DNA of 64,000 bases from Verrucomicrobiota bacterium (GCA_047947115.1 CP170459.1:1472001-1536000), one strand, 5' to 3'; positions 14,044 through 46,976 are shown, numbered from the stretch's first letter. A program made the numbers and translations. The notes: a model not told the origin generated them from the sequence alone.

Positions 14044-14246
14044 GTAGATCGGACCGTCCCGGTCCGCACCTTGTGGCCTCCCCGCTTAAATAAGCTACCC
14101 CAAGGAACACCCAACCGCCTCCGAACCCCAATACCTTTTTGCACGTTCACCAAGGACGCATGTCATTGAAAACCGCAGGCATCCCAAAGCGGAAGTTGAT
14201 TGGAATTCGTATGCCACAAGGGCGCGCCAGGGACGGAACGCACTGC
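14044..14246. repeat. REPIN-like element, GTAG family, long class (203 bp)
   Basis: Left GTAGATCGGACCGTCCCGGTCCGCACCTTGTGGC; right GCCACAAGGGCGCGCCAGGGACGGAACGCACTGC; near-identical to 19713-19915. Confidence 0.9.
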
Positions 14247-14369
14247 CTGGCAGGTAGCGGGCTGCATCATATTCAATGATTATGCTCGACAGTGGTCGAT
14301 GGTTGAAACTTCATAGGTGTCACGTGCTTGATTGGAACGAATTTCAGTATTCACGCATTCTTAATCGTT

Positions 14370-15689
14370 ATGACGGACAACCTTGCTTCCCTTTACACTC
14401 AGGATTTTCAACAGCTCCATCCCGCCGACATAGCAGATCGCATTCAGCGTTTGCCGTTTGAGCAGGCTGCGGAGATCCTCCGTCAACTGCCTTCGTCTAT
14501 TTCAGGTGAAGTGCTCACCGAATTGGAGGAGGATTTCAGGTCGGAACTTATCGTGTTATTTTCTGAATCTGAACTGGTTCAACTCTTTCGCAAGCTTGAG
14601 CACAACGACGCCACTGATTTGATGGCCGAGCTGGATGACGAAATCCAACAACATGTGCTCCAAGCACTGCCCGATGACGTCTCCATTCCAGTTCATGCCC
14701 TCCTCCAATATGGGGAGGATACCGCTGGTGGGATCATGAGCGACCGGTTCATCACTCTGGACCAGGATGAATCAGTGGAATCCTGCCAGGCCAGCTTGCG
14801 GGGTGATATTCGCTTTCAAACCGAAGACATATCTTACCTTTACGTCGTGGATCCTCAACAACGCCTGATTGGCATTGTCAGTTTCCGCGATCTGGTGTTC
14901 AGCTCGCCCCAGCGCAAAGTATCCGAAATCATGCGGCCGAATGTGGCGGCCGTGCGGGTGACCGATGATCAGGAAGAAATTTCTCGTCAATTTGCACATT
15001 ACCATTACTTGGGACTTCCCGTGTTGGATGATCAGGATCGGGTGGTTGGGGTGGTCAAGGCCAGCGATGTTCTGGAGATTGCCCGTGAAGAAGCTACTGA
15101 AGATATGCAATTGATGGTGGGTCTGTCTGGTGAGGAAAGGGCGTTGACTCCCTGGCGCAAGTCACTTCCCAAACGGCTGCCCTGGTTATTTGTCAACCTG
15201 CTGACCGCTTTTGCTGCGGCGTCGGTGGTTGGATTGTTTGAGTCCACCATTGCCAGCTGGACAGCTCTTGCTGTGTTCCTCCCGGTCGTGGCGGGGCAGG
15301 GGGGCAATGCCGGCATGCAAACACTGACAGTCATTATACGGGACATGGCACTCGGTGAACTCAGCAAGGGTGATGGCTACCGTGCTCTTTGGAAAGAACT
15401 GACCCTTGGTCTTGCAAATGGTCTGTGCATTGGAGTCGTGGTGGGGGTGGCGGGATTTCTTTGGAAAGGAAGCATCATTCTCGGGTTGATCGCCTTCCTG
15501 GCTATGGCGCTCACTCAATTGATGGCCGGGCTGGCCGGGGTTCTGATTCCTTTCACACTCAAATTCTTCAAGATCGACCCAGCTTTGGCCTCCAGTATTT
15601 TTGTCACCACCATCACTGACATTGCGGGTTTTTTCTTCTTTCTTGGTTTTGCATCGATCGCGTTGAAATGGGCCGAATCCATGCCTTAA
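14370..15689 (+). CDS. mgtE: Magnesium transporter MgtE
   Basis: LHPADIAD N-domain, DTAGGIM, CBS pair, RLPWLFVNL, GQGGNAGMQT, IDPALAS...TTITDIAG. Confidence 0.95.
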   Translation: MTDNLASLYTQDFQQLHPADIADRIQRLPFEQAAEILRQLPSSISGEVLTELEEDFRSELIVLFSESELVQLFRKLEHNDATDLMAELDDEIQQHVLQALPDDVSIPVHALLQYGEDTAGGIMSDRFITLDQDESVESCQASLRGDIRFQTEDISYLYVVDPQQRLIGIVSFRDLVFSSPQRKVSEIMRPNVAAVRVTDDQEEISRQFAHYHYLGLPVLDDQDRVVGVVKASDVLEIAREEATEDMQLMVGLSGEERALTPWRKSLPKRLPWLFVNLLTAFAAASVVGLFESTIASWTALAVFLPVVAGQGGNAGMQTLTVIIRDMALGELSKGDGYRALWKELTLGLANGLCIGVVVGVAGFLWKGSIILGLIAFLAMALTQLMAGLAGVLIPFTLKFFKIDPALASSIFVTTITDIAGFFFFLGFASIALKWAESMP

Positions 15690-15826
15690 TATCATTCTTT
15701 TTTAATGATGTTTTTCATAATGAATTAGCAGCTTATGATTGCATTCGCATTACGCCATGAATTAGCCGCATGCTCCAGGGTGAATCAGTATTAATATGCT
15801 TATAGGTAATTGGATTTACCTCGAGC

Positions 15827-15862
15827 AACCAAAATGCGACATAAGTAACCAAAATGCGACAT
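15827..15862. promoter_or_regulatory. Tandem 16-bp direct repeat, candidate transcription-factor operator
   Basis: AACCAAAATGCGACAT at 15827 and 15847 (20-bp period), 35 bp upstream of a TTGACA box. Confidence 0.55.
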
Positions 15863-15897
15863 TTTGGGTAGAATTTTCATTTTTGTCCTCTTAGTCG

Positions 15898-15925
15898 TTG
15901 ACAGATTCAGGTTCTGAACTACAGT
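15898..15925 (+). promoter_or_regulatory. Putative sigma70-type promoter of the candidate sRNA
   Basis: TTGACA-N16-TACAGT. Confidence 0.55.
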
Positions 15926-15931
15926 CAATCC

Positions 15932-16042
15932 GGGTACTTCAATCAAGGATGATTGGTTTAGTTGGTTTAGTTGGTTTAGTTGGTTTCACCGATAGAACGG
16001 GTCGCTTATAGTGCAACGCTTAAAGCGGCCCGTTCGCTTTTT
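15932..16042 (+). ncRNA. Candidate small RNA with (TTGGTTTAG)x3.8 repeats and an intrinsic terminator
   Basis: Promoter upstream; repeats 15953-15986; 13-bp stem GAACGGGTCGCTT/AAGCGGCCCGTTC at 15995-16035 then GCTTTTT; no same-strand gene downstream. Confidence 0.5.
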
Positions 16043-16277
16043 AATGAGAGGGGTTTCCGGGAGGGGTTTTCTGTTTTTGAACTCCAGGATCGGGTTGCTC
16101 AAAACGGATCACCATCATCGTAGGTTCCCTCCGGCGTGAGTGTTTCACCCACTTCCTCAGGTTTCAAGCATTGCCCTCCTGATTTCGTGGGAAGTATTCG
16201 CTTATGCGGATGTCACTTCGAAGCTGTTTTGCTCAGGTGTGTGATGATGGTTTCGGGTGAGTTTTGGCGTGAGGGTG

Positions 16278-17705
16278 TCATTCCCACGTCCTTTCGACGT
16301 TTTCATAAACACCAGTGGGGACCAACTGTTCTTTTCCTGAATTGTTTTGGAAATGAACATGCCCTCTCAGGATCACTCCTTCTTCGAAAGTGAGGGGGCC
16401 GCTGACGGTCAGGGAGTCGCAATCCACCAACGATGGAACCGCCCGGCCGAAGCGTTTGTCAAAGTCCTGAATGGTCTTGTAGTGTGAAGGATCCAGTTTG
16501 ACCAGTGGAGGAATGCCTGCCCGTGTGGCATCCAGAATCAGGCAGTGATTCGCGGTGATGGTATAGGCGTCCGAACGAAGTGCCAACAGATCCGAAGTTG
16601 TTTTGACCGGAGAAAATCTTGTTCGATCAACTTCTATCGCGCAGGTCTGATCGAAGCAGGCGATGGCGGCGCCCATGGCCGATTCCAACTGGAGGACTTT
16701 TTGGGAATTGGGATCCTTTGGATCCACGGTTTTTTTGTTTTGGATCAGTGGCAACTGGAATACGCCTTCTTGCTGATCCAGTGCTTCTTTCAATCTATCG
16801 AGTCGGATCCATAGATTGTTCGTGTTGAAGTAACGGTGTCGATCGATGTCTTGAAATGAAGCGATATCATTCTCAGGGCACTGCGCAGACTCCCGGAGGA
16901 TCAGGTGTCCGTCGGATTTGCGTTGGGCCAGGTGGCCGCCCTTCCTGTCGGAAGTTGTGCGGCGCGCCACTTCCATCATGAAGGCGTTTCCTGACTCGGC
17001 GAAGTGTGCCAGTAATCCTGGGTGAATGGTGGCACCAAGATTGTCTGAATTGGAAACGAAGGCATAGATGATACCCCGCTCCAGCAAGCTTTCCAACAGG
17101 CCTTCGGCCATGAGTGATGTGTAAAGGTCACCATGCCCCGGAGGGCACCACTCCAAATCCGGGTTTGATTCATGAGCCACCGGTTCAAGGGTTTCTGCGT
17201 CCAGCTTGGGCACCATTCCCTGAAGAAAATCCAGTTTCTGATCTCCATTGCTCAGTTCGGGAAATTTCTCAAGATAGTGTAATGTGTCCCGGCGGGTGCT
17301 GAAACTGTTCATCAGGTAAAAGGCCGGCCGGTCCGATTTGGATTTTCCCCTAAGCTCCAGGGCCTGCCGGGCAATGAAATCGAGAAAGGTTTCCTCACCT
17401 TTCACCTGCATGAGAGATTTGGCGCGATCCAGTCCCATGCCGGTTCCGAGTCCCCCATTCAGCTTGATGCAGACCAATTGTTGCAGCCGTTCAGTATCCA
17501 GCTGTGAAGCGTTCTCAAGATCTTCCAGTCGAATCAAATCCCGCGCAGGTACGATCGAGTCTTCGGGAATGAAACCCGAGTTCCCCGTTGCAACTTGTGC
17601 AACGGAAGCAAGGTATGTTTCGATTCGAGAGGTGGCAATGCCGGCTTGCCGCATTTTCAGGGTGATGCTCTCTTGAATGAATTGAATGTCCGGGGTGGTT
17701 TTCAT
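16278..17705 (-). CDS. UTP--glucose-1-phosphate uridylyltransferase, UDPGP (eukaryote-like) family
   Basis: KLNGGLGTGMGL..AKS, LMNSFST, WCPPGHGD, SNSDNLGA, FNTNNLW, QLESAMG, RFSPVKTTSDLL. Confidence 0.93.
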   Translation of the reverse strand: MKTTPDIQFIQESITLKMRQAGIATSRIETYLASVAQVATGNSGFIPEDSIVPARDLIRLEDLENASQLDTERLQQLVCIKLNGGLGTGMGLDRAKSLMQVKGEETFLDFIARQALELRGKSKSDRPAFYLMNSFSTRRDTLHYLEKFPELSNGDQKLDFLQGMVPKLDAETLEPVAHESNPDLEWCPPGHGDLYTSLMAEGLLESLLERGIIYAFVSNSDNLGATIHPGLLAHFAESGNAFMMEVARRTTSDRKGGHLAQRKSDGHLILRESAQCPENDIASFQDIDRHRYFNTNNLWIRLDRLKEALDQQEGVFQLPLIQNKKTVDPKDPNSQKVLQLESAMGAAIACFDQTCAIEVDRTRFSPVKTTSDLLALRSDAYTITANHCLILDATRAGIPPLVKLDPSHYKTIQDFDKRFGRAVPSLVDCDSLTVSGPLTFEEGVILRGHVHFQNNSGKEQLVPTGVYENVERTWE

Positions 17706-17763
17706 ATTGCTTGGCTCTTCGGAATACACTCTGCGGGTACCTTGCCTGATGATGTCGGTTCTC

Positions 17764-18684: not shown

Positions 18685-18719
18685 TTCCCGAGTAAGCGTG
18701 AAGAGGGAGCAAGAGACAA

Positions 18720-19689: not shown

Positions 19690-20071
19690 GTAGATGGGAC
19701 CGTCCCGGTCAGGTAGATCGGACCGTCCCGGTCCGCACCTTGTGGCATCGCTGCTTAAATAAGCTACCCCAAGGAAAACCCAACCGCCTTCGAACCCCAA
19801 TACTTTTTTGCACGTTCACCAAGGACGCAGGTCATTGAAAACCGCAGGCTTCCCAAAGCGGAAATTGATTGGAATTCGTATGCCACAAGGGCGCGCCAGG
19901 GACGGCACGCACTACCTTGAGTGAACTGCGGGTAGATCGGACCGTCCCGGTCCGCCCGCTACCGCCAACTGCGCGGATGTTGGGTTGTTGGATGCCAAGG
20001 GGTTTTCCTTGAGAGGTGAAAAACAGGGAATGGAGGCCATGAGGATTGCGTGCCAAGACGCCACGTTCTAC
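19690..20071. repeat. REP cluster: single REP (19690), long REPIN (19713-19915), 16-bp linker, inverted short REPIN (19932-20071)
   Basis: Three GTAGAT(C/G)GGACCGTCCCGGTC heads; CTAC ends at 19915 and 20071. Confidence 0.88.
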
Positions 20072-20083
20072 CTGTCCCCCAAC

Positions 20084-30093: not shown

Positions 30094-33000
30094 ATGAGTA
30101 AAAATAAATATAACTTATTCACACGCAGTAAGTTAGGGTTTGCTTCGCTCTCTGCGGCCGTCATCGGCCTCAGTGGTGTTGCAAACGCTGGCGATGTCAC
30201 ATGGGATTTCAATAGTGATCCCGTAGATGACGGTATTATTCTGTCCGGAAATAACGACGCGATTTGGGTCGAAGAGGGCGGAAACGACGGTGGCTTCTTG
30301 GCGGTTACATACCCCGAAGGTGGCCAGGATGGCTATGTAGCATTCCCCAGTATTGATGCTGATAACGAAATTGTTGCCGGCTTCAAACTCTCAGGTGAGG
30401 CACGTATCGGTAACAGTACGGGTGATCGTGCCGCGGACGGTTTCAGTGTGAGCTTGGCTCGCGACAATGGAACAGATCCTGTTGTTGAAGAGTTAAATGC
30501 CAATGGCGCTATTTCAGGCATGGGTAACTTTGCCGGTGGTATTGCCGAAGGTGGAACCACGACCGGTGTTGCAGTTAGCTTTGACACTTGGGCTGGAAAT
30601 ACTCTGCCTGATGGTGGTGATATCGAAGGTATCATCGTCCGCGTGGACAATGTGACCATCACCCGTGAAGGTCTCCCTACTCGCCATGGTGAGTGTGATG
30701 ACATCACCAGTTTGCAGACCGGGCCTCGCAACCAGCAGTATTGGGATGACGGTGGCGATCCTCGCGATCCTGAGTCCTGGGCCGATCTTTGCTGGCAGCC
30801 TTTCTCTGTGGAAGTGACCGCTCCTACGGGTGGCGAGTTAGCAAAACTCACTGTTGCCTTCAAAGGAAACAATGTGTTGGACAACTTCGAGCTTGATTAC
30901 TTCCCTACCAAGAGCCGAGTGATCTTGGCTGGTCGAACCGGTGGTGCCAATGAGCACACCCACTTTGACAACCTGCGCTTGACCACAACTGCCATCACTG
31001 GCGGTGGCGCTCCTCCCAAACCAGGCGACTTGGCCGTGGATCTCGAGGGTGCTGGTTTCGTGCGCTTGTCCTGGGAAGCTGCTAACACCCCTGACTTGGT
31101 TGCATACAAAATTGAGCGTGATGGCGTTCAACTGGCCGGTCAGGTGACCGGGACAACGTTTGATGACTTTGGGGTGAGCGCTAACAGCTCCTACAAATAC
31201 AAGGTCTACACCATGAGCATTGATGGAACTCTTTCCGAAGAGCCCACCAACGAAGTGACCGCAACCACCATCGACGTCGTCGAAGTGGAAGCATTCCAGA
31301 ACATGCTCGTTTACGAAGGAATTGGTGGAACGGATACTCCAACCTTGATCTTCGATACCCCTGATTTCCCAGACAACCCAACACGCACCGTGTTCATCAA
31401 TGGTCTGGACTTCACTCCTGGCGGTATTGCTGATAACTACGGTGGTCTTGTAACCGGAACCTTGACTCCTCCAGTTTCCGGGGATTACCACTTCTTCATT
31501 CGTTCGGACGATGCTTCCGAGTTCTTCTTGAACGAAGACGGTGCGGATGCTCCTGATCCAACCTCAGACTTCCCGATCGCATTCGAAACCGGATGCTGTA
31601 ACGGCTTCTATGAGCCAGGTGAAGACGATGCCACAACTGTGACGCCAATTCCTTTGACTGCTGGTACAAAATATGGTTTTGCCATGGTGCTCAAAGAAGG
31701 TGGCGGTGGCGACTGGTTCCAAGTTGCATGGCGTCGCGAAGGTGACGACACCCCTGCTGCTGAATTGGCACCAATCACGGGTTCCGCTGTGGGTGGTGGT
31801 CTCGGCGATCCTACCGGTGCCTATATCAACATCACTTCTCAACCTCAAGACGCAGTCATTCCTGCGGGTTCATCCGCTACGATCGAACTCGGTGTGGAGG
31901 CTGGTTCTCCCTACACCAACGCTGTTCTCTACCAGTGGATGAAAGACGGCGAGCCTGTTGCAGGTGGCACTAGCCAAAACTTGGTCATCAACGATGCTAC
32001 CGCTGACGATTCCGGTGAATATACCGTCAAGATCATCGTTCTGGGTCTGTCTGAAACTTCAGAAGCAGCCACGATCTCCGTTCAAGAACCTGCCGCCTTG
32101 GTTGCTGGAAACTCTATCGGTATCAACTTCGCCTCCGATGAGCCCGCCGGTAACGGTTCGGCTGTGGACGGCGAAGCGGGTGTGATTGGAACTTCTGTCT
32201 GGAACAACTTGGTTGGCGGAAGCGGAGCTTCTGACTTCCTGGTTGCTGACGTGGACGGTTCTGCTGGTTTGACCGGCGTGAAAGTCACCTGGAGCTCTCC
32301 CAACACCTGGTCCAGCCAGGGCCGTGGTGAAGAAAACAACAGCGCTCCTGCTGGCAACGACCGTAACCTCATGACCGGTTACATTGACACCAACAGCAAT
32401 GATCCAAACCAGGTCATCGTGACCGGACTGCCTTCCGACCTCTCTTACGATGTGGTTGTTTACATGAAGGGTGGCGTTGTTGGCCGTGGTGGTGATTACA
32501 CCGTCAAAGGCAGCCTCGCTAATGGCTTGGTTGCTCGATGGAACTTCGACAACGAAGACTTCAGCGATTCTGTGGGTAGCTACGATGGCGAAGGCATGGG
32601 AACTGATCCGATTGCATTCGGTGACGGTCCTACCGCTGAGTTCGGAAAAGCTCTGACCTTGGATGGTATCGATCAATTCGTTGAAATCACCAGTGATGGT
32701 GGCGACCTCGGTTTCACAGGTGGCAGCATGTCTGTTTCAACCTGGTTCCGCGCAAACGACTTCGATAAGAGCTGGCAAGCCCTGATCGCTGACGGTGAAG
32801 GTAACCGCTGGCGTCTCCACCGCCGTGGCGGTGAAGGTGGTTTTGCCTGGGTCGGTGGTAACGGCGGCACCCCAGTGGGTGCCGATGTTTCCATTGGTGA
32901 ATGGCATCACGTTGTGGGTGTGGCAGATGCTTCCGGTTTGGAATTCGGCTCTCGCCTCTATCTTGACGGTGAAATCTACGCCACAAACGTCACGCCCGCT

Positions 33001-33531
33001 GACTTGGGTAGCAACGACTTCAACGTCATGATCGGTGAAAATCCTGACGCTCGTGGTCGTACCTGGAACGGTGATATCGATGATGTAGCCATGTGGAACC
33101 GTGTTTTGACTCACGACGAAGTCAAAGCACTGGGTGCAGGTCCTCTCCAAACCGGAGGTGTGACCCTGCCTCACTATGATAGCGGCGCCTTCACCGGTAA
33201 CTATGTCCATGGTCGTGATGGTGATTACATCGTATTCAAAGACATCTCTGGAACCAGCTTCGTGCTGGAAGGTCAACCCGTCGAACTCCGCGCTCCAATC
33301 AATGGTATTGATATCTTGATCGGTGGTGGATTCGAACCTCCCGCCGGTGGCGGTGGTGGTGAAGGTGGCATCTCCAGTGTTGCTTTGGCAGACGGAAATG
33401 TGGTCATCGAATACACTGGCACGCTGAAGAGTGCTGACAGTGTGACCGGACCTTACAGTGATGTGGCTGGTGCCAGCTCACCTTACTCTGTGGCTCCTAC
33501 CAAGGCTGCTGAGTTCTACATCGCTGAATAA
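30094..33531 (+). CDS. Large secreted multidomain protein (lectin-like, FN3, PA14, Ig, LamG)
   Basis: Signal peptide; ADGFSVS lectin-like region; FN3 (LSW...YKYKV); PA14 (GDYHFFIRSDDASE...KEGGGGD); Ig (YQWMKDG...DSGEY); LamG (WHHVVG...GDIDDVAMWNRVL). Confidence 0.85.
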   Translation: MSKNKYNLFTRSKLGFASLSAAVIGLSGVANAGDVTWDFNSDPVDDGIILSGNNDAIWVEEGGNDGGFLAVTYPEGGQDGYVAFPSIDADNEIVAGFKLSGEARIGNSTGDRAADGFSVSLARDNGTDPVVEELNANGAISGMGNFAGGIAEGGTTTGVAVSFDTWAGNTLPDGGDIEGIIVRVDNVTITREGLPTRHGECDDITSLQTGPRNQQYWDDGGDPRDPESWADLCWQPFSVEVTAPTGGELAKLTVAFKGNNVLDNFELDYFPTKSRVILAGRTGGANEHTHFDNLRLTTTAITGGGAPPKPGDLAVDLEGAGFVRLSWEAANTPDLVAYKIERDGVQLAGQVTGTTFDDFGVSANSSYKYKVYTMSIDGTLSEEPTNEVTATTIDVVEVEAFQNMLVYEGIGGTDTPTLIFDTPDFPDNPTRTVFINGLDFTPGGIADNYGGLVTGTLTPPVSGDYHFFIRSDDASEFFLNEDGADAPDPTSDFPIAFETGCCNGFYEPGEDDATTVTPIPLTAGTKYGFAMVLKEGGGGDWFQVAWRREGDDTPAAELAPITGSAVGGGLGDPTGAYINITSQPQDAVIPAGSSATIELGVEAGSPYTNAVLYQWMKDGEPVAGGTSQNLVINDATADDSGEYTVKIIVLGLSETSEAATISVQEPAALVAGNSIGINFASDEPAGNGSAVDGEAGVIGTSVWNNLVGGSGASDFLVADVDGSAGLTGVKVTWSSPNTWSSQGRGEENNSAPAGNDRNLMTGYIDTNSNDPNQVIVTGLPSDLSYDVVVYMKGGVVGRGGDYTVKGSLANGLVARWNFDNEDFSDSVGSYDGEGMGTDPIAFGDGPTAEFGKALTLDGIDQFVEITSDGGDLGFTGGSMSVSTWFRANDFDKSWQALIADGEGNRWRLHRRGGEGGFAWVGGNGGTPVGADVSIGEWHHVVGVADASGLEFGSRLYLDGEIYATNVTPADLGSNDFNVMIGENPDARGRTWNGDIDDVAMWNRVLTHDEVKALGAGPLQTGGVTLPHYDSGAFTGNYVHGRDGDYIVFKDISGTSFVLEGQPVELRAPINGIDILIGGGFEPPAGGGGGEGGISSVALADGNVVIEYTGTLKSADSVTGPYSDVAGASSPYSVAPTKAAEFYIAE

Positions 33532-33563
33532 GCCGACTATTTAACAACGTTAAATCTCAACAC

Positions 33564-33596
33564 GAAAGCCCGCTCCCAGGAGCGGGCTTTCCTTTT
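33564..33596 (+). terminator. Rho-independent terminator
   Basis: 12-bp stem GAAAGCCCGCTC/GAGCGGGCTTTC followed by CTTTT. Confidence 0.88.
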
Positions 33597-33598
33597 AG

Positions 33599-33801
33599 GT
33601 AGATCGGACCGTCCCGGTCCGCACCTTGTGGCATCCTTACATAAATAAGCCATCCAAAGGAAAACCCAACCGTATCCGAACCCCAATATCACTGGGAGCG
33701 TTTACCAAGGACGCATGTCATTGAAAACCGCAGGCTTCCCAAAGCGGAAGTTGATTGGAATTCGTATGCCACAAGGGCGCGCCAGGGACGGCACGCTCTC
33801 C
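33599..33801. repeat. REPIN-like element, GTAG family, long class (203 bp)
   Basis: Same head and internal sequence as 14044 and 19713; right end degenerate (CTCC). Confidence 0.9.
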
Positions 33802-33859
33802 TTTTCCATGTTCCAAACGCTTGGAATTTCCATTCTCTGATAGTAGGGTTCACCTGCAC

Positions 33860-35731
33860 ATGATGAGCTTAAATCGACAGTTTGTTGGGATCTTGTTACT
33901 TGCCTTGATAGGAGCTGAAGGCATGCATGCCGCCTCATTGGTTTCCAAAGACCTTATCAAAAACAAACAACATACCCATTTCCGCGTCTCACCAGACGGT
34001 TCCAAAATTGCTTTGTTGGCACCCCATGAAGGAGCCATGAATATTTGGCATCAGGGAGTTGGGCGTGGTAAACGCACACTCATCACGCGTGAATCCCGAT
34101 CTTTGACCCACTTTTTATGGCAATATGATAATGAACATCTCCTTTATCTCCAGGATCAGGATGGCGATCAGCAGCACCATCTTTATCAGGTGGATATAAA
34201 CGGATTCAATACGCGCGACCTGACGCCCTATAGAGGTATTCAGGCACTTGTGGTATCCATGTTGCCTTTGGTGCCGGACCAGATCCTTGTTTCCATGAAC
34301 CTCAACAGCCGGCAGCGGCACGATGTTTTTCGGATCAACTTGGACACCGGCGCGATTGAATCGGACACGATCAATCCAGGATATGTGATTCAATGGGCAG
34401 CTGATGCCGATTTGCAGACAAGGGCAGGAGTGACACTGTCCCCGGGAGGAGATTACGAGATTCTCATCAAGAACCTCGCCAATGGTGAGTGGACTCCCAA
34501 GGTGACGATTCCTGCGGGTCGTGCCATTCCGGGTTTGATCGGATTTTCTCCGGATGGTTCTGTTCTGTGGTATTTGGGAGATGACGAAACCGGGAGCATC
34601 AGGCAATGGGCGTTAAATCTTCAAACAGGCGAAACGGCATCCACTCCTGAAGGAAAAGTGGGTGATGTTGTCGACGTGTTTCGAGATCCTGTCTTGGGGG
34701 TGCCGGAGGGTGTGGCGCTCCGTAATCCCATGAAATCCTGGCGTATGTTTCATGGTGGATATGAAAGTATCATCGAGTTTCTGCGTTTTGAAAAAGGAGA
34801 TCTGTTCTTTCCGAGTCGAAGCCTTCAGAAAAAGGAATGGATCGTAGGATACACCGATCCTCAGATGTCGACTACCTATCAGGTCTATGTTCTGGGAGAT
34901 CGACACAAGGTCATCCTGATGGGAATGGAGCGGCCTAATCTACGCAACGGCAATTTTTCCGCCACCCAACCGGTGTTGATTCCCGGACCTGATGGACAAA
35001 AAATCCGAGCCACATTGAATCGTCCGATCCTGAAAAAGGAAGAACCTGTGCCGACGGTGATTCGGGTCGTGGATGGTGCCATGGATCAACCAACCTTCCA
35101 ATTCGATGAAGAAGCTCAGTGGTTGGCTTACAAAGAAATGGCAGTATTGACGATTTACCCGCCACGCGGTGTGGCTTCGAAAGAGGCAGTGACTGCGCTT
35201 GCTGATGATCATTGGGCCACAGGTTTGAAAGACGACATTCTGGTTGCCAGAAATTGGGCGATTGCAGAAGGACATGCCAAAGATGATCAGATTTATCTCA
35301 AAGGGACTGGTTTGGGTGCTTATGCCGCTCTCTCTGCCGGGGTGAAGCAACCTGATGCTTTCGCGGGTTTGGTTTTGGTGAATGGTGTAACAGATGTTCC
35401 CTCATTTATGAAAGAGTTGCCGACCTATGAACAATCTATCGCGTCCAAGCTGGCCGGATGGTTCACCGGTGACACATCCGGGCAGAAAGCGTGGGTGGAA
35501 CCATCACCGTTGGACCATCTAAATGACCTGGATTCACCTGTTTTGCTAGTGCACGGAGCCAATAATCCTTGGATTCGCAAGGATCAGGCGGGGCGTTTAA
35601 GATCCAAGCTTCTCAACCTTCAGAAGCCGGTGGAAACCCTCTTGATCGAAGGCGAAGGTCACCAGATCATTCAGGAGAACAACGTGATTCGCTACTACGA
35701 GGCCCTGGAAAAATTTCTAAGTGCCAGGTAG
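33860..35731 (+). CDS. S9 (prolyl oligopeptidase/acylaminoacyl peptidase) family homolog, probably catalytically inactive
   Basis: Signal peptide, beta-propeller (SPDGSKIA, RDLTP), C-terminal SPL...PVLLVHGAN.P...EGH; GTGLG at the nucleophile elbow. Confidence 0.8.
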   Translation: MMSLNRQFVGILLLALIGAEGMHAASLVSKDLIKNKQHTHFRVSPDGSKIALLAPHEGAMNIWHQGVGRGKRTLITRESRSLTHFLWQYDNEHLLYLQDQDGDQQHHLYQVDINGFNTRDLTPYRGIQALVVSMLPLVPDQILVSMNLNSRQRHDVFRINLDTGAIESDTINPGYVIQWAADADLQTRAGVTLSPGGDYEILIKNLANGEWTPKVTIPAGRAIPGLIGFSPDGSVLWYLGDDETGSIRQWALNLQTGETASTPEGKVGDVVDVFRDPVLGVPEGVALRNPMKSWRMFHGGYESIIEFLRFEKGDLFFPSRSLQKKEWIVGYTDPQMSTTYQVYVLGDRHKVILMGMERPNLRNGNFSATQPVLIPGPDGQKIRATLNRPILKKEEPVPTVIRVVDGAMDQPTFQFDEEAQWLAYKEMAVLTIYPPRGVASKEAVTALADDHWATGLKDDILVARNWAIAEGHAKDDQIYLKGTGLGAYAALSAGVKQPDAFAGLVLVNGVTDVPSFMKELPTYEQSIASKLAGWFTGDTSGQKAWVEPSPLDHLNDLDSPVLLVHGANNPWIRKDQAGRLRSKLLNLQKPVETLLIEGEGHQIIQENNVIRYYEALEKFLSAR

Positions 35732-36030
35732 AACGGATCGTCCCCGATCCGCACCTTGTGGAATCCTTGCTCAAAAATGGTATCCAACGGAAACTCTGAT
35801 GTAGTTGAACGCCACAATCTCCATGCGCATTCGGGAGGAATACAGGCTATTGAAAACGGAGGGCTTCCCAAAACGGCCGATGATTGGAATTCGAACGCCA
35901 CTAGGGACGCGCCGGGGACGGCACGATCTACCTGAGGTGGCCTGCAGGTAGTGCTGACCGTCCCGGTCCGCTCCTTGTGGTAATCTTATTCAAAACTCCC
36001 ATCCAAAGGAAACCCTTGGAGTAGTCAAAC
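35728..36030. repeat. REPIN (35728-35931), 16-bp linker and a truncated REPIN from 35948, flanking the RAYT 3' end
   Basis: GTAGAACGGATCGTCCCCGATCCGCACCTTGTGG...GGGACGGCACGATCTAC; GTAGTGCTGACCGTCCCGGTCCGCTCCTTGTGG; right boundary approximate. Confidence 0.85.
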
Positions 36031-36066
36031 ATCCACCACCTCTTCAGTGTGGCGTATCACATATGG

Positions 36067-36582
36067 CTATAGCTCATTTTTTGCGCACAGTCCGGCACGA
36101 ACTGGATTATTGAGTGTATAAGAGCACTTTTCAACATACTCATTGAGATTCCTGATTCGATGGTCAAAAAAATCCCGCTGCCACTGAATGCCAAAGGCTC
36201 GCGCTGTGTATGATTTCCAGTTTGTGACTGGCTTTCTCAAACCGATATCCACGGGCACAGAAAGCATGGCGTGCAGATGATCCGGCATTAACAGCATGAG
36301 GCGGCAGGTCCATTTGCCGATTTGATGGTAGTAGAAAGCTGATTTCAACAGGGACCACGCTACTAAAGGGTGGCATAGCTGATTGGTGCCCTTAGGTGTG
36401 GTGCAAATGGTGACAAAAAAGCATGGAGAACCGGAAACCCACTGAGGGATATAATGGGCGAGACGGCCTTTGCGTAATTGAGGATTTTTAAATTGGCATT
36501 TCAAAGGCTTTGGCCCTTCGAACTCAATGAAAGCAATTTGTTTTGTGAAGCCAGTAAAACACCTTAATTGAAAGATAGCCAT
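36067..36582 (-). mobile_element. REP-associated tyrosine transposase (RAYT, HUH/Y1 family); start uncertain
   Basis: FFVTICT, HUH motif MPDHLH, WQRDFFDHRIR, catalytic Tyr in YTLNNPVRAGL; flanked on both sides by GTAG REPs. Confidence 0.9.
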
Positions 36583-36592
36583 ACTTTTTTGG

Positions 36593-36816
36593 GTAGATTC
36601 CCGACGAGTCGGTATCTGGGTACGCACCTTGTGGCGTTCTTATTCAAAATTGCCATCCAATGGAACCTCCTGAGGTAATCGAACGCCAAAACCCATCTGT
36701 TTGCGTTTGCATAGAATACAGATCATCGAGAACCACAGGCTTCCCAAAACGGAAGATGATTGGAATTCAAGCGCCACAAGGGGCGCGCCGGGGATACCGC
36801 AGTCGTGGGATTCTGC
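36593..36816. repeat. REPIN upstream of the RAYT, both ends carrying short palindromic substitutions
   Basis: Internal CAGGCTTCCCAAAACGGAAGATGATTGGAATTC and GCCACAAGGGGCGCGCCGGGGA match the family. Confidence 0.85.
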
Positions 36817-36838
36817 CTGATGTGGGCGTTCGTCATTA

Positions 36839-38392
36839 TTAAGGTTTGATCGGGTATCGCTTTACTTTCACATCATTGAGTTGTTCAGGCCCAGGATTGC
36901 TTCGGCCTTTTGTGATCAAGTGTTCCAGCAATTGGCTTAGTTCCGTAACCTTGTCCGGTTGGGTGGCGGCAAGATTGTTCGATTCGGCAATGTCTTTCGA
37001 GAGATCGTATAGCTGTATCGTTGTTTCTGCTTCGCCCTTTGTCCAGCCGCCGGAACCCTTGTCCAGAACCAGTTTCCAATTGCCTCGACGAATGCTGGGA
37101 ATGCCGCGGATGGAGCAACTCACCGAGTGTTCCCGAATAGGTTTGTTCTCACCTTTCAATAGGGGTATCAGGCTGAAACTGTCTTCCCCTTCATTTTCTG
37201 CCAACGGCGTTTCGAGCACATCCGACAGGGTGGCGATCCAATCGGCTTGATGGATCAATTGATGATTTGTGGATCCGGGCGCCACAACCTTGGGCCAACG
37301 CACGATGAAGGGAACACGGTGTCCGCCTTCCCATGCGTCGGATTTGTATCCACGCAGTGGTCCGCTCGGGAAGTGGCCTTTGGCTTCCAATTGGTCAACA
37401 TCGATATAGGGCGCACAGCCATTGTCACTGGTAAACAGGACAAGTGTTTGCTCGGTCTGGCCGCTTTCTTCGAGCGCGTTGAGGATGTTCCCCACAACTG
37501 CGTCGGTTTCCATCACCATGTCGGCATAAAGATTGAGTCCGCTTTGGCCCTTCCATTCATCATTGACGGACAGCGGGGTGTGGGGAGAAGTGAGTGGGAT
37601 TTAGAGCAAGAAAGGTTCTGGAGTGTTCCCTTCGCTTTTGATGAATGCCGAGGCTCGTTCGGCGAGTGCCGGCAGGATGGGTTCCAGCGTCCAGTCTTTG
37701 AGCGCCGGGCCTTGTTTGCTGGCCTGGTTACGCGCCAGTTGTGGGGCTCCAAGAAACTCCGATGGGATGCCCACGGTGCGATCCTGATCGATAAAACAAT
37801 AGGGTGGCCAGTTGGGAACATCCGTTCCAAAATAGAGATCGAATCCTCGTGTGATTGGACCGCCTTCAATGGGTTGAGAGAAGATGGATGACCAAAGCTT
37901 GCGGTGATCCTCGGTTGCCTGCGCGTCGTTGGGGTGGTTGGCACGCATGGCTGGCAAAGCATCGTTTGGAATGGGCCAGTCCCATCCTAAGTGCCACTTC
38001 CCGATGCACGCTGTGTTGTATCCGCTCTTTTTGGCAAGTCCGGCAATAGTCAAGCGATTCGGCGCGATCAGTGTTTTGCCCCAGAGTCCTACAATTCCAG
38101 ATTGCAAGCTGGTGCGCCAGTGGTAGCGTCCGGTCAATAAAGTGTAGCGCGAAGGTGAGCAAACCCCGGAGGAGGAATGCGCATCGGTGAACCGCATCCC
38201 TTCACGCGCCAGGCGGTCAATGTTGGGGGTCGGAATGAGGCCTCGATCCGGGTTGTAACATTGTACATCGCCGTAGCCCAGGTCGTCGGCATAGATGATC
38301 AAAATGTTGGGTGTGTCAGCCGAGGCCGGGGATAGGCCTGCCCAAAGCGAGCTCATCAGGATGGAACAAAAGGATGCGAAGCAGTGTTTCAT
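36839..38392 (-). pseudogene. Arylsulfatase (Cys-type formylglycine sulfatase) interrupted by one in-frame TAA at 37601-37603
   Basis: PNILIIYADDLGYGD, CSPSRYTLLTGR, GKWHLG; reads through as PFLL*IPLTSPHTP into the same-frame half with FTSDNG, GYKSDAWEGGHRVP. Confidence 0.88.
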
Positions 38393-38471
38393 AAAACAAA
38401 TCAAATGTTCGGGACTCAGATGCAATTTATAGACTCATCTTGCCATGACAAGTCGTGACAGATGAATTATT

Positions 38472-38854
38472 GGAGGGTCGGGTTCCACCCCGAACCCAAA
38501 CTTCCTCCTCGAAACCCTCCTGAGCAAGAGACGTGGAACGCGGGAAGCTGTTGGCAATTGTATGCCTGTGGCGTTTCCATTGCAGCCTGGTGGCGGGTTC
38601 GAGCGTTGCGAGGTCTGAAATGGGAGTCCCGACTCGTCGGGAGAGTTTGCCCCTCCATTTTGTAAATACGGAGGGTCGGGTTCCACCCCGAACCCAAACT
38701 TCTTCCTCGAAACCTTCCTGAGCAAGAGACGTGCAACGCGGGAAGCCGTTGGCAATTGCATGCCTTTGGCGTTTCCATTGCAGCTTGGTGGCGGGTTCGA
38801 GTGTCGCGAGGTCTGAAGTGGGAGTCCCGACTCGTCGGGAGAGTTTGCTCTTCC
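38472..38854. repeat. Tandem pair of 185-bp GGAG-ended REPIN-like elements (second family)
   Basis: Units 38472-38656 and 38670-38854 (198-bp period), each starting GGAGGGTCGGGTTCCACCCCGAACC and ending CTCC/TTCC. Confidence 0.85.
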
Positions 38855-40557: not shown

Positions 40558-40564
40558 AAAGGTT

Positions 40565-41368: not shown

Positions 41369-41377
41369 TACGCGGAT

Positions 41378-42511: not shown

Positions 42512-42671
42512 GTTTCGGTGCGGGGTGGCGTGGTGTTTTGGTAACCCGCTCTACCCCGCCTGAAACGTGTCTAAAAATGCGTCTGATTTCAAGGGCGGAA
42601 CGCCTTAAATGGGTATTTTGCGGTTTGACCGTCCCCGAAAAGGTGAACTTTCCACGCGGAGCAGCCCGCAG

Positions 42672-42888
42672 GTAGAGCTGATCGTCCCGATCCGCTCCTT
42701 GTGGTATCCTTATCCTAAACTGCGAACCAAAGGAAAACCCCAACGTATCCAAAGGACTAAAAATCCAATGCACACGTCCGAGCAGAGTTTCGGTTATTGA
42801 AAAATTGCAGGCTTCCCGAAACGGAAGTTGATCGGATATTGGACCCCACAGGGACGCGCCAGGGATCCACGCAGTCGCGGGATTCTAC
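42672..42888. repeat. REPIN-like element, GTAG family, with a palindromic substitution in the right end
   Basis: GTAGAGCTGATCGTCCCGATCCGCTCCTTGTGG...GCAGGCTTCCCGAAACGGAAGTTGAT...GATTCTAC. Confidence 0.85.
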
Positions 42889-42972
42889 CAATTTTAAGGC
42901 TTTGGCGATTTGTTACGACTTTATCAATGTTGCGAATGGTATGGCTTATGCTCCCTGATGTCGGCTGTTAAA

Positions 42973-43248: not shown

Positions 43249-43304
43249 TCCTGTCAGTGTGCTTTTCGCGTGACCTGCAGGAGTCGACGTTACATTCTTG
43301 TTTC

Positions 43305-44804
43305 ATGAGATTCCTGTTGCTGTTTTTTTTAGGCGCATGGTCATGCTTTGCGGAAAAGGTTCGATGGGTGATCAGTGAAGCCGAATCAGATCAGCCTGCA
43401 CCTTGTCGCATCCATCTGACGGATTCAGAGGATCAACCGGTTCGTGCTCCTGGACTTCCATTTTGGCGTAATCATTTTGATACGCCTGGAGATTTTACAC
43501 TCGATCTCAAACCGGGGTCCTATCGTTTTGAAATTTTCCGTGGTCCCGAATACCTGATGCTTGAAGGTGGCTTTGAAGTCAAAGCGGGGCATGAAATGTT
43601 GATGTTGCGCCATTCGCTCAAGCGCATCGCTCATATGTCGGAGGAAGGTTGGTGGTCCGGGGAATTGCATATTCATCGGCCGGTGAATGAGGTGCCTCTG
43701 TTGATGCGGGCGGAGGATTTGCATGTGGGTCCGGTGATCACCTGGTGGAATCAAAACAATCCATGGAAGGATCTAGCCTTGCCTGAATCTCTTTGGCGTG
43801 AAGTGGCACCTGATCGATTCATCGGCCTCATGGGGGGCGAGGATGAGCGTCGGGGTGGGGCGTTGTTGTATTTTAATCTCAATGAACCATTGGACATTCA
43901 GTCCGCTCAGCCTGAGCATCCGTCCCCCATGATGTTCCTGAATCAAGCCGAGGCGCTTGGGGCCTGGATTGATATTGAAAAGCCGTTCTGGCGGGATGTC
44001 CCTGCATGGATTGCTTCAGGAAAAGCGGATTCCATTGGTCTGGCAAATAATCACATGTGGGAGCGAGGCATGCTCGACAACGAAGCCTGGGGCAGACCTC
44101 GGCCAATGGAAGATTATCCATCACCACAGGGGAACGGACGATGGACGCAGTTTTTGTATTATCACATTCTCAACGCGGGAATCCAACTGGCTCCATCCGC
44201 CGGAAGCGCGTCGGGAGTGTTGAATAATCCGGTGGGCTACAACCGTGTGTATGTGCATTTGGAAAATGGTTTGAATCTGGACGATTGGTGGGAGGGATTG
44301 CGAGAGGGCAGATCGTTTGTGACCAATGGCCCTTTGCTGCGGTGTCGGGTGGGGGAGTCGCTTCCGGGTGCTCGTCTTGTGGTGTCCGGTTCAGATACTT
44401 CCCATCATTTGATGGCACGCTTGACGAGTAGGGATCCGGTCGAAGCGTTTGAAATCATCCACAACGGTGAAGTCATTCGAAGGATTGCGGTGCGGGATTT
44501 GAAAGGAACGATCGAGCAGGATTTGGGGCAAGCTCCCACCGATCGGCCGGGTTGGTTTTTGGTTCGAGCCGTGACATCCCTTCCTCACACGTTTCGTTTT
44601 GCTTCGACCGCGCCCTTTTATGTGGTCGATGACAATGGTGCCATCCCTGTTCGCGAGGACGCTTGTCAATTTTTCCTTACCTGGGCGCGAGAACGTATGA
44701 ATACCCTTTCATTGGAGGATGATCCGTTGCGCGGGGAAGTTTTGGAATACTGGAAGGAGACTGAGGTGTTCTGGATGGATCGTTTGGCCGGCATTGGAAA
44801 ATAG
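43305..44804 (+). CDS. Secreted CehA/McbA-like (PHP-fold) metallohydrolase
   Basis: Signal peptide, RGPEY, WWSGELHIHR, SAGSASG, GYNRVYV, GRSFVTNGPLL. Confidence 0.75.
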   Translation: MRFLLLFFLGAWSCFAEKVRWVISEAESDQPAPCRIHLTDSEDQPVRAPGLPFWRNHFDTPGDFTLDLKPGSYRFEIFRGPEYLMLEGGFEVKAGHEMLMLRHSLKRIAHMSEEGWWSGELHIHRPVNEVPLLMRAEDLHVGPVITWWNQNNPWKDLALPESLWREVAPDRFIGLMGGEDERRGGALLYFNLNEPLDIQSAQPEHPSPMMFLNQAEALGAWIDIEKPFWRDVPAWIASGKADSIGLANNHMWERGMLDNEAWGRPRPMEDYPSPQGNGRWTQFLYYHILNAGIQLAPSAGSASGVLNNPVGYNRVYVHLENGLNLDDWWEGLREGRSFVTNGPLLRCRVGESLPGARLVVSGSDTSHHLMARLTSRDPVEAFEIIHNGEVIRRIAVRDLKGTIEQDLGQAPTDRPGWFLVRAVTSLPHTFRFASTAPFYVVDDNGAIPVREDACQFFLTWARERMNTLSLEDDPLRGEVLEYWKETEVFWMDRLAGIGK

Positions 44805-44904
44805 GTTGCCCAAGTGGTGTTTCGGGGTAATTTCTTCGACCATGGAGTTTGTGAGGATTAAGCCAACGTATTCAGTCCATTTGAATCCACGTCTTGGGGA
44901 CGCA

Positions 44905-44973
44905 GTTGATTGGAATGGAATTGGGGTGCGATCCAGGCGCGCTCGCGGGCCTGCGTCAGCAGGTCTCTTCTAC
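44905..44973. repeat. Degenerate right half of a GTAG-family REPIN
   Basis: GTTGATTGGAAT...GGCGCGC...CTAC, with CCTGCGTCAGCAGG at 44950-44963. Confidence 0.5.
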
Positions 44974-45042
44974 CTGTTGCGTTGGTTGCAATGGCCTAAA
45001 CCCTTGTCCGTTTATGGAAGCGTAGGATAATCATATCAGCCA

Positions 45043-45600
45043 ATGGATCTTCCTTTCAAAATACCTGATCTCAATCCAGCTCAATGGAACCTCGTCACGG
45101 GCATCCTTGTCGGGCTTTCATTGCTCCTCTTTGGGCGAAGATTGTATTGGCTGATGTTTGCGACCGTCTGGTTTCTCGTTGCCATGTTGGTGACCACGGT
45201 TTTTTTACCGCCGACCCAGGAATCGCAGTGGTGGTTGGTGGTCCCGTTTATTGCCGGCATCGCCGGGGCTATCCTGAGCCTCTTTGTGCACAAAACCGCT
45301 CTACGATTTTTCGGCGCACTCGCGGGCGCCTATGTAGGATATCATCTCTTGCAGCCTCACGTTGTGGATCCCTGGCCCTGGGTTGGTTTGGGCGTGGGCG
45401 TGTTGGTGGGATTCCTGATGGTGATGATGGTTTTCAATGGGGCGCTCATTCTCCTGTCCTCCTTGCTTGGGGCCATGTTACTGCTCGAACCCATGTCCGC
45501 CTCCCCGGAAGTCCGCATGGCGGTGACAGCTGGATTGGTCATTGTGGGGTGCGCGATACAAACACGCTCGCGTCCCAAGGACAAGAAAGAGAAAGATTAA
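45043..45600 (+). CDS. Integral membrane protein (DUF4203-like)
   Basis: About 7 Gly-rich TM helices; LLLFGRRLYW, LSSLLGA. Confidence 0.75.
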   Translation: MDLPFKIPDLNPAQWNLVTGILVGLSLLLFGRRLYWLMFATVWFLVAMLVTTVFLPPTQESQWWLVVPFIAGIAGAILSLFVHKTALRFFGALAGAYVGYHLLQPHVVDPWPWVGLGVGVLVGFLMVMMVFNGALILLSSLLGAMLLLEPMSASPEVRMAVTAGLVIVGCAIQTRSRPKDKKEKD

Positions 45601-45614
45601 AATCTGATGAGCCC

Positions 45615-46634
45615 TTACTTCTTTGGAGGTTCTACTCCTAATTTTTGGAAGGACAGTGGGGTGGCTGCACGTCCCTGGGGGGTTCGGATGAGGAAGCCTT
45701 CCATGATTAGGTAGGGTTCGTAGACTTCTTCGAGGGTGTCGGATTCTTCTCCGACGGCAACGGCCAGGGAGTTGATGCCGACGGGGCCGCCTCCGAATTT
45801 GATGACAATGCATTCCAAGATGCGTTTGTCCATTTCATCGAGTCCGTTTTCGTCGATTTCCAGCATGGCAAGGGCTTTGTCCGCTATGTCGGCGGTGACG
45901 CGGCCGTCGTGGCGGACCTGGGCGTAGTCCCGAACGCGGCGCAGGAGATTGTTGGCGATGCGCGGGGTGCCCCGGCTGCGTCGGGCGATTTCAAAGGCGC
46001 CTTCGGTTTCCATCTCCACGTTCAGCAGGCGCGCGGATCGGAGCACGATCTTTTGCAGGTAATCAGCCGGGTAATGATCCAATCGTTCACGCACCGGGAA
46101 TCGACTCAGCAGCGGAGCCGACAAGAGTCCGCTGCGGGTGGTGGCTCCGATGAGGGTGAATTTGGGGAGGTTCAGGCGGACGCTGCGGGCGTTGGGGCCC
46201 TGGTCGATGATGATGTCCAGTTTGTAGTCTTCCATCGCAGGATAGAGGTATTCCTCAATGGTTTTCTGCATGCGATGGATTTCGTCAATGAAGAGGACGT
46301 CACCTTCTTCGAGGTTGGTCAGGAGTCCTGCCAGGTCCCCCGCTTTTTCGATGGTCGGTCCGCTGGTGCTTTTGAGACTGGCTCCCATGCTTTTGGCAAT
46401 GATGCCGGCGAGGGTGGTTTTGCCCAGGCCGGGGGGGCCGTTGAGGAGGATGTGATCCAGCACGTCGCCCCGTTGCTTGGCGGCCTGGACGGCAATTTCG
46501 AGACGTTCCTTGATTTTGTCCTGACCGGTGAAGTCGGAGAACAGCGAGGGTCTCAGCGTCAGTTCCAATGCTGAGTCCGGTCGATTCAAAGTTTCCAGGG
46601 GCCGTTCGTCCATGTGATGGAAAACATGCGCCAT
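45615..46634 (-). CDS. ruvB: Holliday junction branch migration helicase RuvB
   Basis: [50 protein letters not shown]. Confidence 0.97.
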
Positions 46635-46751
46635 GGCCGGGATTGCGACAAGCTGAAAACGATAACGAGCTGTCTTTGGGGGATTTTGTTTGGGAACCGT
46701 AGATTGTGCAGCTTGTCGCAGATTTTTTAAGGGTCGGTTTTTCTGTGCGTC

Positions 46752-46976
46752 AGGGTTTCCTTTGGGTGGTGGGTTTGGTTAGCGGTGCCATAAGGGGCGC
46801 ATCGAGACGATCCGATCTACCATGGGTGAGCTGCAGGTAGATCGGATCGTCCCTGATCCGTGCCTTGTGGTTTTCGAAGGGCAATCAACTTCCGTTTGGG
46901 AAGCCATTGGGTTTCCTTTGGGTGGTGGGTTTGGTTAGGGGTGCCACAAGGGGCGCATCGAGACGATACGGTCTAC
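46752..46976. repeat. Partial REPIN (to 46820), 16-bp linker and a short-class REPIN (46837-46976, 140 bp), inverted relative to the long copies
   Basis: Two copies of GGGTTTCCTTTGGGTGGTGGGTTTGGTTAG.GGTGCCA.AAGGGGCGCATCGAGACGAT.CG.TCTAC; GTAG head at 46837. Confidence 0.85.

Follow-up and report, generated by a model that had tools for sequence, protein, structure and literature searches.

A single-copy RAYT-like gene nested in a dispersed family of strand-polar GTAG-hairpin repeats in a Verrucomicrobiota genome

The 64,000-nt stretch of DNA analysed here (the window; GCA_047947115.1, CP170459.1:1472001-1536000) belongs to the single-contig, 6.08-Mb genome of a Verrucomicrobiota bacterium (G000), and carries a gene for a Y1/HUH protein resembling the REP-associated tyrosine transposases (RAYT, or TnpAREP; REP, repetitive extragenic palindrome), set among copies of a ~205-nt repeat with a GTAG-tagged hairpin at either end. 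The window contains six full copies of this repeat and a truncated one next to the gene, together with partial copies at 46752-46976 and a single second-family element (Table 1). The gene itself is nested in one copy of the element, being bracketed by a left REP (REP-L, plus strand) at 35948 and a right REP (REP-R, minus strand) at 36816, with the full copy at 36593-36816 starting 10 nt from its ATG. The presence of copies on both sides of the gene (35948-36044 and 36593-36816) agrees with an earlier, sequence-based reading of the window (the original prediction), which had proposed a RAYT transposase with a cognate family of dispersed GTAG repeats.

A repeat search of window positions 13000-48000 recovers a 208-nt family at 14041-14248, 19710-19917 (95%), and 33596-33803 (88%), more diverged copies, grouped in sub-families, at 35726-35935, 35946-36035 (truncated), 36590-36818, and 42669-42890, and a 69-nt duplicated end at 46753-46821 and 46909-46977. 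Alignment of the 11 stretches listed in the original prediction shows a nearly invariant 5' GGTAG and a 3' end of CTACC. An nhmmer-type hidden Markov model (HMM) of 209 positions, trained on the six full window copies, yields 117 matches in the genome at E <= 1e-3, which reduce to 102 non-overlapping places and to 42 full copies (at least 170 of the 209 model positions covered) at 37 loci, numbers that exclude a chance origin and establish the dispersed family as real. Six of the 42 cluster within 33 kb around the RAYT gene, and tandem arrays of two to three units, with a conserved spacer of 12-16 nt, occur at four loci. A degenerate copy proposed at 44905-44973 did not survive, having no HMM match and aligning poorly, while two other proposed copies are of a different kind: 19932-20071 has only REP-L in common with the main family and is a member of a second one, of ~142 nt, with 76 near-full copies genome-wide, and 46837-46976 is a short variant in which both ends carry REP-L-like hairpins and the core is inverted and shortened.

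Table 1. Positions of the RAYT-like gene and of repeat copies in the window.
Feature	Position	Strand	Remarks
Full copy	14044..14246	+	After the terminator-like hairpin of a superoxide dismutase gene
Solo REP, GGTAG plus hairpin	19690..19712	+	Abuts the copy at 19713
Full copy	19713..19915	+	95% identical to 14044; missing from G001
Second-family element, ~142 nt	19932..20071	+	Main-family REP-L; core and right REP differ
Full copy	33599..33801	+	Directly 3' of a terminator-like hairpin
Full copy	35728..35931	+	GGTAG provides the TAG stop of the S9 peptidase open reading frame; tandem with 35948, 12-16 nt spacer
Truncated copy, REP-L type 1 plus left core	35948..36044	+	nhmmer model positions 2-99; 22 nt from the RAYT stop codon
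RAYT/TnpAREP-like HUH-Y1 gene	36067..36582	-	171 residues from ATG
Full copy	36593..36816	+	Immediately 5' of the RAYT start; hairpins of both ends are of type 2 (GTAGATTCCCGAC...)
Full copy	42672..42888	+	Type-2 right REP; counterpart in G001 is two tandem copies
Partial copy (46752-46821) plus short variant (46837-46976)	46752..46976	-	157-nt unit directly duplicated

In the consensus of the 42 copies, the left end consists of (C)AGGTAG, 1-3 nt, and a 6-bp hairpin (CGGACC/GGTCCG with the loop GTCCC) followed by CCTTGTGGC, the middle is a core of ~130 nt, and the right end comprises GCCACAAGG, a 7-bp hairpin, and CTACCT(G). The latter end is a second, different REP (REP-R), inverted relative to REP-L, and both ends and the core are present in the 42 copies, with two inverted REPs plus a spacer forming the repeated unit, a feature of REPINs (REP doublets forming hairpins). 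A third hairpin type (GTAGATTCCCGAC...GTCGGGA) substitutes at either end in some copies, including that at 36593, with at least three REP stem types present (GGACC/GGTCC, GCGYGCC, and TCCCGAC). Two blocks of the core, CCAAAGGAAA and ATTGA.AAC..CAGGCTTCCCAAAACGGAAGTTGATTGGAATTCG, are far better conserved than the middle.

The pairing of the named helices was counted across 65 copies, 42 from G000 and 23 from G001, a sister species of the same genus. In REP-L, pair 24-34 takes the form A-T (39 copies), G-C (12), and G.T (7), and pair 25-33 the form C-G (33) and T-A (11), with REP-R pair 200-211 being G-C in 51 copies and A-T in 7, and pair 196-215 A-T in 18 and G-C in 14. Read on the top strand, REP-L contains 34 G.T cells compared with 4 A.C cells, and one pair of REP-R is C.A in 49 of 63 copies on the top strand, equivalent to T.G on the bottom strand; these strand-specific wobbles indicate that each REP folds on the strand bearing its own 5' GTAG. 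The hairpins are kept foldable, with compensatory changes in both, reflecting selection on the GTAG strand of each REP. Strand-specific folding of this kind fits recognition as single-stranded DNA, and also RNA hairpins in transcripts entering the element from either side. Folds of single copies pair the two ends with each other (z = -4.1 and -4.2 for 33599, z = -1.4 for 42672), consensus folding of the 42-copy alignment gives no structure, probably owing to an alignment that is too noisy for the purpose, and a blind scan over all column pairs was swamped by G.T noise.

Two further candidate pairings were rejected, namely a core hairpin (CTTCC/GGAAG) in which changes mostly disrupt pairing and none is compensatory, and a long-range TCCAA/TTGGA pairing that is formed in only 20-47 of 64-65 copies.

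The RAYT gene has, besides its ATG, an in-frame TTG at codon 27 that would give a product of ~145 residues; relatives align only from residue ~36, and the first ~35 residues are not common to them. The protein matches the NCBIfam model REP_Tyr_transpos (NF047646) at E 3.8e-17 (62.5-62.9 bits) and, as a single sequence, E. coli TnpAREP (PDB 4ER8) at E 2.8e-4, the latter match running across the HUH and Tyr motifs. A profile built from the protein and 16 relatives, which were taken from 26 related loci and a genome search with L038 excluded for a stop codon in its matched stretch, reaches 4ER8 at 5e-11 (positions 16-133 of 135), whereas it reaches ISDra2 TnpA at only 0.008. All 17 aligned members match REP_Tyr_transpos, with 2 of the 17 matching transpos_IS200. 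Across this alignment MPDHLH, WQRDFFDHR, and N159 P160.R do not vary and Y155 hardly does (at least 90%), with all of these present here, and the HUH motif, the catalytic Tyr, and the Asn four residues on, a residue whose role is addressed in PMC6006769, align to the same motifs in 4ER8. As judged from these sequence matches, the predicted protein is RAYT/TnpAREP-like and closer to TnpAREP than to the TnpA of the insertion sequences (IS) IS200/IS605, in line with the original prediction. The gene is single-copy, with only two distant paralogues (34-36% identity) in the genome.

One of these paralogues (G000 5390989-5391348, minus strand, locus L002, 36% identical) has a REP family of its own, GGTAGGGCTCCGC(N4)GCGGAGCC, of which the 3.4-kb locus holds three copies; exact matches to the pattern number five genome-wide, every one of them on the minus strand. 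Open frames of ~350 residues at G000 1066077, 776080, and 385609 also match REP_Tyr_transpos at their N-termini (43-57 bits); these are longer proteins of different architecture, with counterparts in G001 and in G007, another genome of the genus.

The association of gene and repeat is not confined to this genome. Twenty-six loci, mostly from Verrucomicrobiota by record title (Akkermansiaceae, Opitutae, and Verrucomicrobiia), encode relatives at 50% identity or less, and 24 of them, all but L051 and L058, have GGTAG-plus-GC-hairpin repeats no farther than ~150 nt from the gene, with GGTAG constant and the stems lineage-specific. An inward-facing inverted REP pair is present at L037, L040, L041, L044, L045, and L050, and doublets of ~135 nt stand next to RAYT relatives in Akkermansiaceae loci. 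GTAG-hairpins number 101 in these loci, and the same search with five control tetranucleotides gives 28-52; the loci are thus generally well supplied with GC-rich hairpins, and the argument rests on the repetition and position of the repeats. The 16-mers flanking the gene here reach 13 and 9 genomic occurrences, whereas 24 of 25 control intergenic regions do not exceed 2. The element models have no match in 37 RAYT loci of other genomes.

The outermost bases of the element, CAGGTAG...CTACCTG, are a 7-nt inverted repeat and belong to imperfect inverted ends of ~35 nt, as might be seen in miniature inverted-repeat transposable elements of an unrelated DDE cut-and-paste transposon, with the Y1 gene a bystander. 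Such an origin is extremely improbable, as the 27 copies with both ends show no target-site duplication (mean flank repeat of 1.89 nt, versus 1.57 +/- 0.22 nt for shuffled partners), the covariation of the hairpins is strand-specific, and 24 of the 26 relatives also have the gene in a REP neighbourhood, with REPs that co-vary.

We read the locus as a RAYT-REP system of the REPtron or BIME (bacterial interspersed mosaic element) type, in which a single-copy TnpAREP-like gene sits inside a ~205-nt repeat with two inverted GTAG hairpins and the enzyme is likely to move the repeats, and give this reading a probability of roughly 0.7. In such a system the Y1 enzyme would bind GTAG hairpins folded in single-stranded DNA, make a cut close by, and rejoin the ends, with insertion into the lagging-strand template in one polarity, by analogy with IS608 and ISDra2. 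New units would be added next to REPs already present or to other gene-end hairpins, and tandem arrays would arise from amplification that is either RAYT-driven or recombinational. REP cleavage by this protein, its making of the copies, and its coupling to the fork are what we infer.

The orientation of the copies follows replication. The cumulative GC skew is lowest at 1.105 Mb and peaks at 3.99 Mb, and the orientation of the element switches at both. In 37 of the 42 full copies the top strand, bearing the 5' GGTAG of REP-L, lies on the G-rich strand of its replichore, that is, the lagging-strand template; counted by locus the polarity is 32/37 (p = 7e-6 against 0.5, p = 4.5e-4 against 0.6), and it is 34/37 among copies of at least 55 bits, for which five lower copies with close two-strand scores were dropped. 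The second family is also fork-oriented, in 56 of 76 copies (p = 4e-5). As a control for gene strand, crude genes called from open reading frames (ORFs) lie on the leading strand in 53% of cases (2386/4470), and the element's own GC skew is -0.01. Among the caveats on the polarity are that the plain motif GGTAG lies on the leading strand in 59% of cases, and that 24 of the 37 loci are within 1.04 Mb of the skew minimum.

Three well-scoring copies in the minority orientation (684842, 725879, and 839236) fall within one 160-kb stretch of the left replichore, where the minority copies of G000 0.68-0.84 Mb are interleaved with correctly polarised ones and small past inversions could have occurred. 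A six-unit tandem array of the second family at G000 1754690-1756502 is likewise in the minority orientation.

An orientation bias of IS200/IS605 elements, with the top strand on the lagging-strand template by way of single-stranded DNA, is established (PMC3971601), TnpAREP is described as recognising the single-stranded REP and not its inverted counterpart, iREP (PMC8266576), and some REP tandem arrays are reported to be mirrored about the origin (Bertels and Rainey, PMC3116915). Full-text literature searches returned no report of replication polarity for REP, BIME, or REPIN elements, and the words 'bias' and 'replichore' are absent from PMC3333891. It is possible, although we advance this only tentatively, that asymmetric REP doublets such as these reveal strand-polar, RAYT-driven copying in vivo, through fork-coupled single-strand insertion using only one of the two REPs, with the ~130-nt linker serving as a required cis-acting or host-binding module. 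If true, the polarity would be a genomic footprint that symmetric REPINs cannot show.

The copies are also placed at gene ends. The ORF at 33755..35731 (Pfam Peptidase_S9) stops at the TAG within the GGTAG of the copy at 35728, as the original prediction had stated. Its claim that copies sit directly after terminators holds for 14044, which directly follows an inverted repeat and T-run located 3' of an Fe/Mn superoxide dismutase ORF, and for 33599, preceded by a 12-pair terminator-like hairpin at 33564-33591; the PA14 gene that it placed before the latter was not seen (E <= 1e-5), with matches to Laminin_G_3 and Ig_3 found instead at that threshold. Genome-wide, 31 of the 42 copies lie 3' of a gene that reads into them, and 20 of the 42 lie between convergent genes. 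Together with the strong conservation of the linker blocks relative to the rest of the element across old copies, and with GTAG-strand wobbles that are also compatible with selection on RNA hairpins, this placement might reflect a host function at gene ends, such as stabilisation or termination of mRNA 3' ends or binding of a chromosome-organising protein to the linker, with the polarity arising by selection; host-protein binding and effects on mRNA have been described for the REPs and BIMEs of E. coli (PMC3479197). We regard this explanation as decidedly unlikely, since the polarity tracks replication (88%) better than transcription (11/17 copies in tandem-gene contexts), with replication followed by 11 of the 11 copies co-oriented with tandem genes and by 5 of the 6 opposing them. 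Moreover, an Rfam scan of 13000-48000 (E <= 1) returned two chance-level matches, at 26 bits against gathering scores of 50-55 and neither in the element core, the candidate core hairpin lacks compensatory changes, and the absence of copies from other members of the genus (below) argues against a general requirement for the element.

Element DNA was found in 2 of 41 genomes (assemblies 75-94% complete), in G000 with the gene and in G001 without it. In the six other same-genus genomes (G002-G007) no copy of the element was found, nor, in five of them, a RAYT match, with G007 giving only paralogue-level matches (33-36%). Among 40 related genomes, orthologue-level protein matches (41-51% identity) are limited to G026, G032, G033, and G036, which belong to other families, with none in the seven same-genus genomes; a match on contig C38 of G001 is the orthologue of a paralogue at 2.36 Mb in G000, and not of the window gene. 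Contig C2 of G001 is collinear with G000 1.483-1.605 Mb over 121 kb, at ~74-92% identity, and holds orthologous copies for most of the window copies, the family being older than the species split on this evidence. At the site of the gene, G001 has a single element with a REP-L like that at 35948 and a core and right end like those of 36593, which looks like the expected product of a crossover between the direct repeats flanking the gene, and the absence of RAYT from G001 looks like secondary loss. RAYT loss accompanied by slow decay of the repeats is documented in E. coli, Pseudomonas chlororaphis, and Neisseria (bioRxiv 10.1101/2021.07.10.451892). G001 lacks the copy at 19713, through a 219-nt indel bounded by a 25-nt REP-L repeat, and has extra tandem copies at the 33599, 42672, and 2.801-Mb sites. 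The G000 stretch at 826-845 kb has almost no counterpart in G001, and the contigs of G001 break at the tandem pair near 2.816 Mb.

In environmental data, the stretch 33000-37200 is present in 20 of 24 listed runs, with at least half of its words in 16, the runs being mostly seawater and estuary metagenomes from 18 studies. A DNA contig (X2) covers 35909-38650, including the gene, and an RNA-library contig (X15) covers 35966-36851, although such libraries can contain DNA and the contig is no proof of transcription. A third contig (X16) joins 46752 to 46909 and so lacks one 157-nt unit, showing that copy number differs within environmental populations as well. Most joints in the environmental contigs have sides shorter than 35 nt inside repeats and represent cross-mapping, and depths are not comparable between genes.

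A number of observations weigh against a RAYT-REP system whose enzyme moves the repeats. The RAYT protein falls below curated cut-offs (62.5 versus 80 bits for NF047646, 19 versus 23 for Pfam Y1_Tnp), and is a diverged member of NF047646 on sequence grounds, not an equivalog-level match. The CT dinucleotide 5' of REP-L is not conserved, occurring within 12 nt in 17 of 35 copies, or about as often as by chance; as a guess, the CT within the conserved CCTTGTGG 3' of each hairpin is a candidate cleavage site. The gene dnaA (G000 5937145-5938500, at 5.94 Mb) is ~1.25 Mb from the skew minimum, leaving GC skew as the sole basis for fork direction, with the replication origin of G000 probably not adjacent to dnaA. 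In the closed chromosome of a relative, G041, the REPs are mixed in orientation (9 forward and 12 reverse of 21), although these may be parts of symmetric pairs, and so carry little information on polarity.

The remaining observations concern the history of the copies, and would also be expected of a decaying relic that spread in the distant past, of which the present gene is no longer, or never was, the mover, with recombination or slippage accounting for both the variation and the loss of the gene from G001. Median pairwise identity is ~0.4-0.6 (gaps and 12-nt flanks counted), and the closest copy is usually the physical neighbour in G000, with neighbour identities of 93% at 225.7 / 225.9 kb, 92% in the 2.665-Mb array, and 84% at 5.217 / 5.220 Mb, and of 87% between 14044 and 19713 when gaps and flanks are counted. 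With neighbours as nearest relatives and low medians, copying is rare and mostly local, and the activity of the element appears low and its copies old. Across the 121 kb syntenic between G000 and G001, all element differences are tandem changes of copy number beside an existing REP, bounded by shared REP sequence, and insertions into virgin sites were not seen; recombination or slippage could produce such changes with no transposase involved, and the hybrid element at the RAYT site in G001 matches the outcome of a crossover. The repeat family persists in G001 (88% complete, 31 element matches) with no RAYT at the syntenic site and none found elsewhere. This goes halfway towards an objection raised with the original prediction, that relatives might carry the repeats irrespective of RAYT, the repeats being there and the missing gene looking like a secondary loss. 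Finally, the commonest gene-flanking 16-mer occurs just 13 times, far below the values for REPIN-associated RAYT groups, for which averages of 57 and 140 are given for Groups 2 and 3 (PMC5581495).

We nevertheless consider a relic unlikely. The gene is intact and keeps all invariant residues of its family, and the environmental contig X2 spans it. Copies 14044, 19713, and 33599 are 88-95% alike, compared with ~80-89% for syntenic DNA between the two species, so that some copying or conversion is fairly recent, and recombination alone fails to explain either the dispersal to 37 loci or the replication polarity.

With regard to known systems, the RAYT-REP locus described here resembles the E. 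coli REPtron (Ton-Hoang et al. 2012, PMC3333891; Messing et al. 2012, PDB 4ER8) in its single-copy Y1/HUH gene flanked by REPs, in REP hairpins with GTAG 5' of the foot, in having several REP types (y, z1, and z2 in E. coli), and in its REP/iREP pairs around a linker, some of which are in tandem arrays. In contrast to the REPtron, the protein is a distant relative (E 2.8e-4 to 4ER8), the linker is ~130 nt with conserved blocks rather than short, the hairpins have short regular stems 1-3 nt from GTAG, and copy number is low (42 + 76). In anatomy alone, the E. coli BIME is the closest analogue, with two different inverted REPs, a linker that is here conserved and ~130 nt, and units that are sometimes in tandem; orientation here follows replication, whereas no such statement was found for BIMEs.

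The REPIN-RAYT systems (Bertels and Rainey 2011, PMC3116915; Bertels et al. 2017, PMC5581495) share the inverted REP pair as repeated unit, the single-copy gene flanked by repeats, the appearance of new copies next to existing ones, and the retention of the repeat population by RAYT-less relatives (bioRxiv 10.1101/2021.07.10.451892). Unlike in a REPIN, the two REPs here differ and the element is not a near-perfect long hairpin, and there is no dominant master sequence or near-identical population. Given unlike REPs, a long conserved linker, and diverged copies, the BIME is the closer analogue, and of the cognate RAYT-REPIN system originally predicted, the RAYT-REP relationship is supported while the term REPIN applies only loosely. 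With IS200/IS605 elements (IS608, ISDra2) the system shares a Y1/HUH enzyme, hairpin ends, a lack of target-site duplication, and the bias of the top strand to the lagging-strand template (PMC3971601), but the gene is not repeated together with its ends, with no second close copy, and the hairpins are mutually inverted whereas those of IS200/IS605 are both on one strand, and the family profile scores poorly against ISDra2 TnpA. GTAG-tagged stem-loops have been reported in the Planctomycetes-Verrucomicrobia-Chlamydiae superphylum, with Opitutus terrae highly enriched (Di Nocera et al. 2013, PMC3733652); that survey has no description of the present family.

Other repeats were noted in passing. 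A tandem array of 6.7 units of 189 nt at G000 ~3500790-3502050 has no model match and a unit without GGTAG, placing it in another family; its unit holds ACCTTGTGGC, the motif 3' of both REPs in the family studied here. In the window, 38472-38854, to the right of a sulfatase gene, is a 185-nt direct tandem duplication (94% identity, spacing 198), both copies of which match one G001 stretch (C2rc 8572-8742), suggesting a single copy there. Window positions 12500-12620, the 5' ~120 nt of an ORF, have ~30 matches in G001 at 72-86% identity, and represent a paralogous coding segment and not a mobile repeat, the encoded peptide presumably resembling a prepilin-type N-terminal methylation signal.

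RAYT-REP systems and verrucomicrobial GTAG repeats are already known (PMC3733652), and the notable points here are the replication polarity and the RAYT-less sister species. The spread of REPs, BIMEs, and REPINs in cells is still called poorly understood (PMC8266576), and most such elements are near-symmetric, leaving the polarity of insertion unreadable from the genome. The two families described here have unlike ends, an asymmetric core, and an orientation that flips at the GC-skew extremes, a polarity that makes testable the idea, derived from IS608, that RAYT acts on single-stranded DNA of the lagging strand. In addition, G000, with the gene, and G001, with a recombination scar in its place, form a natural pair for comparing such a repeat population in the presence and absence of its presumed transposase.

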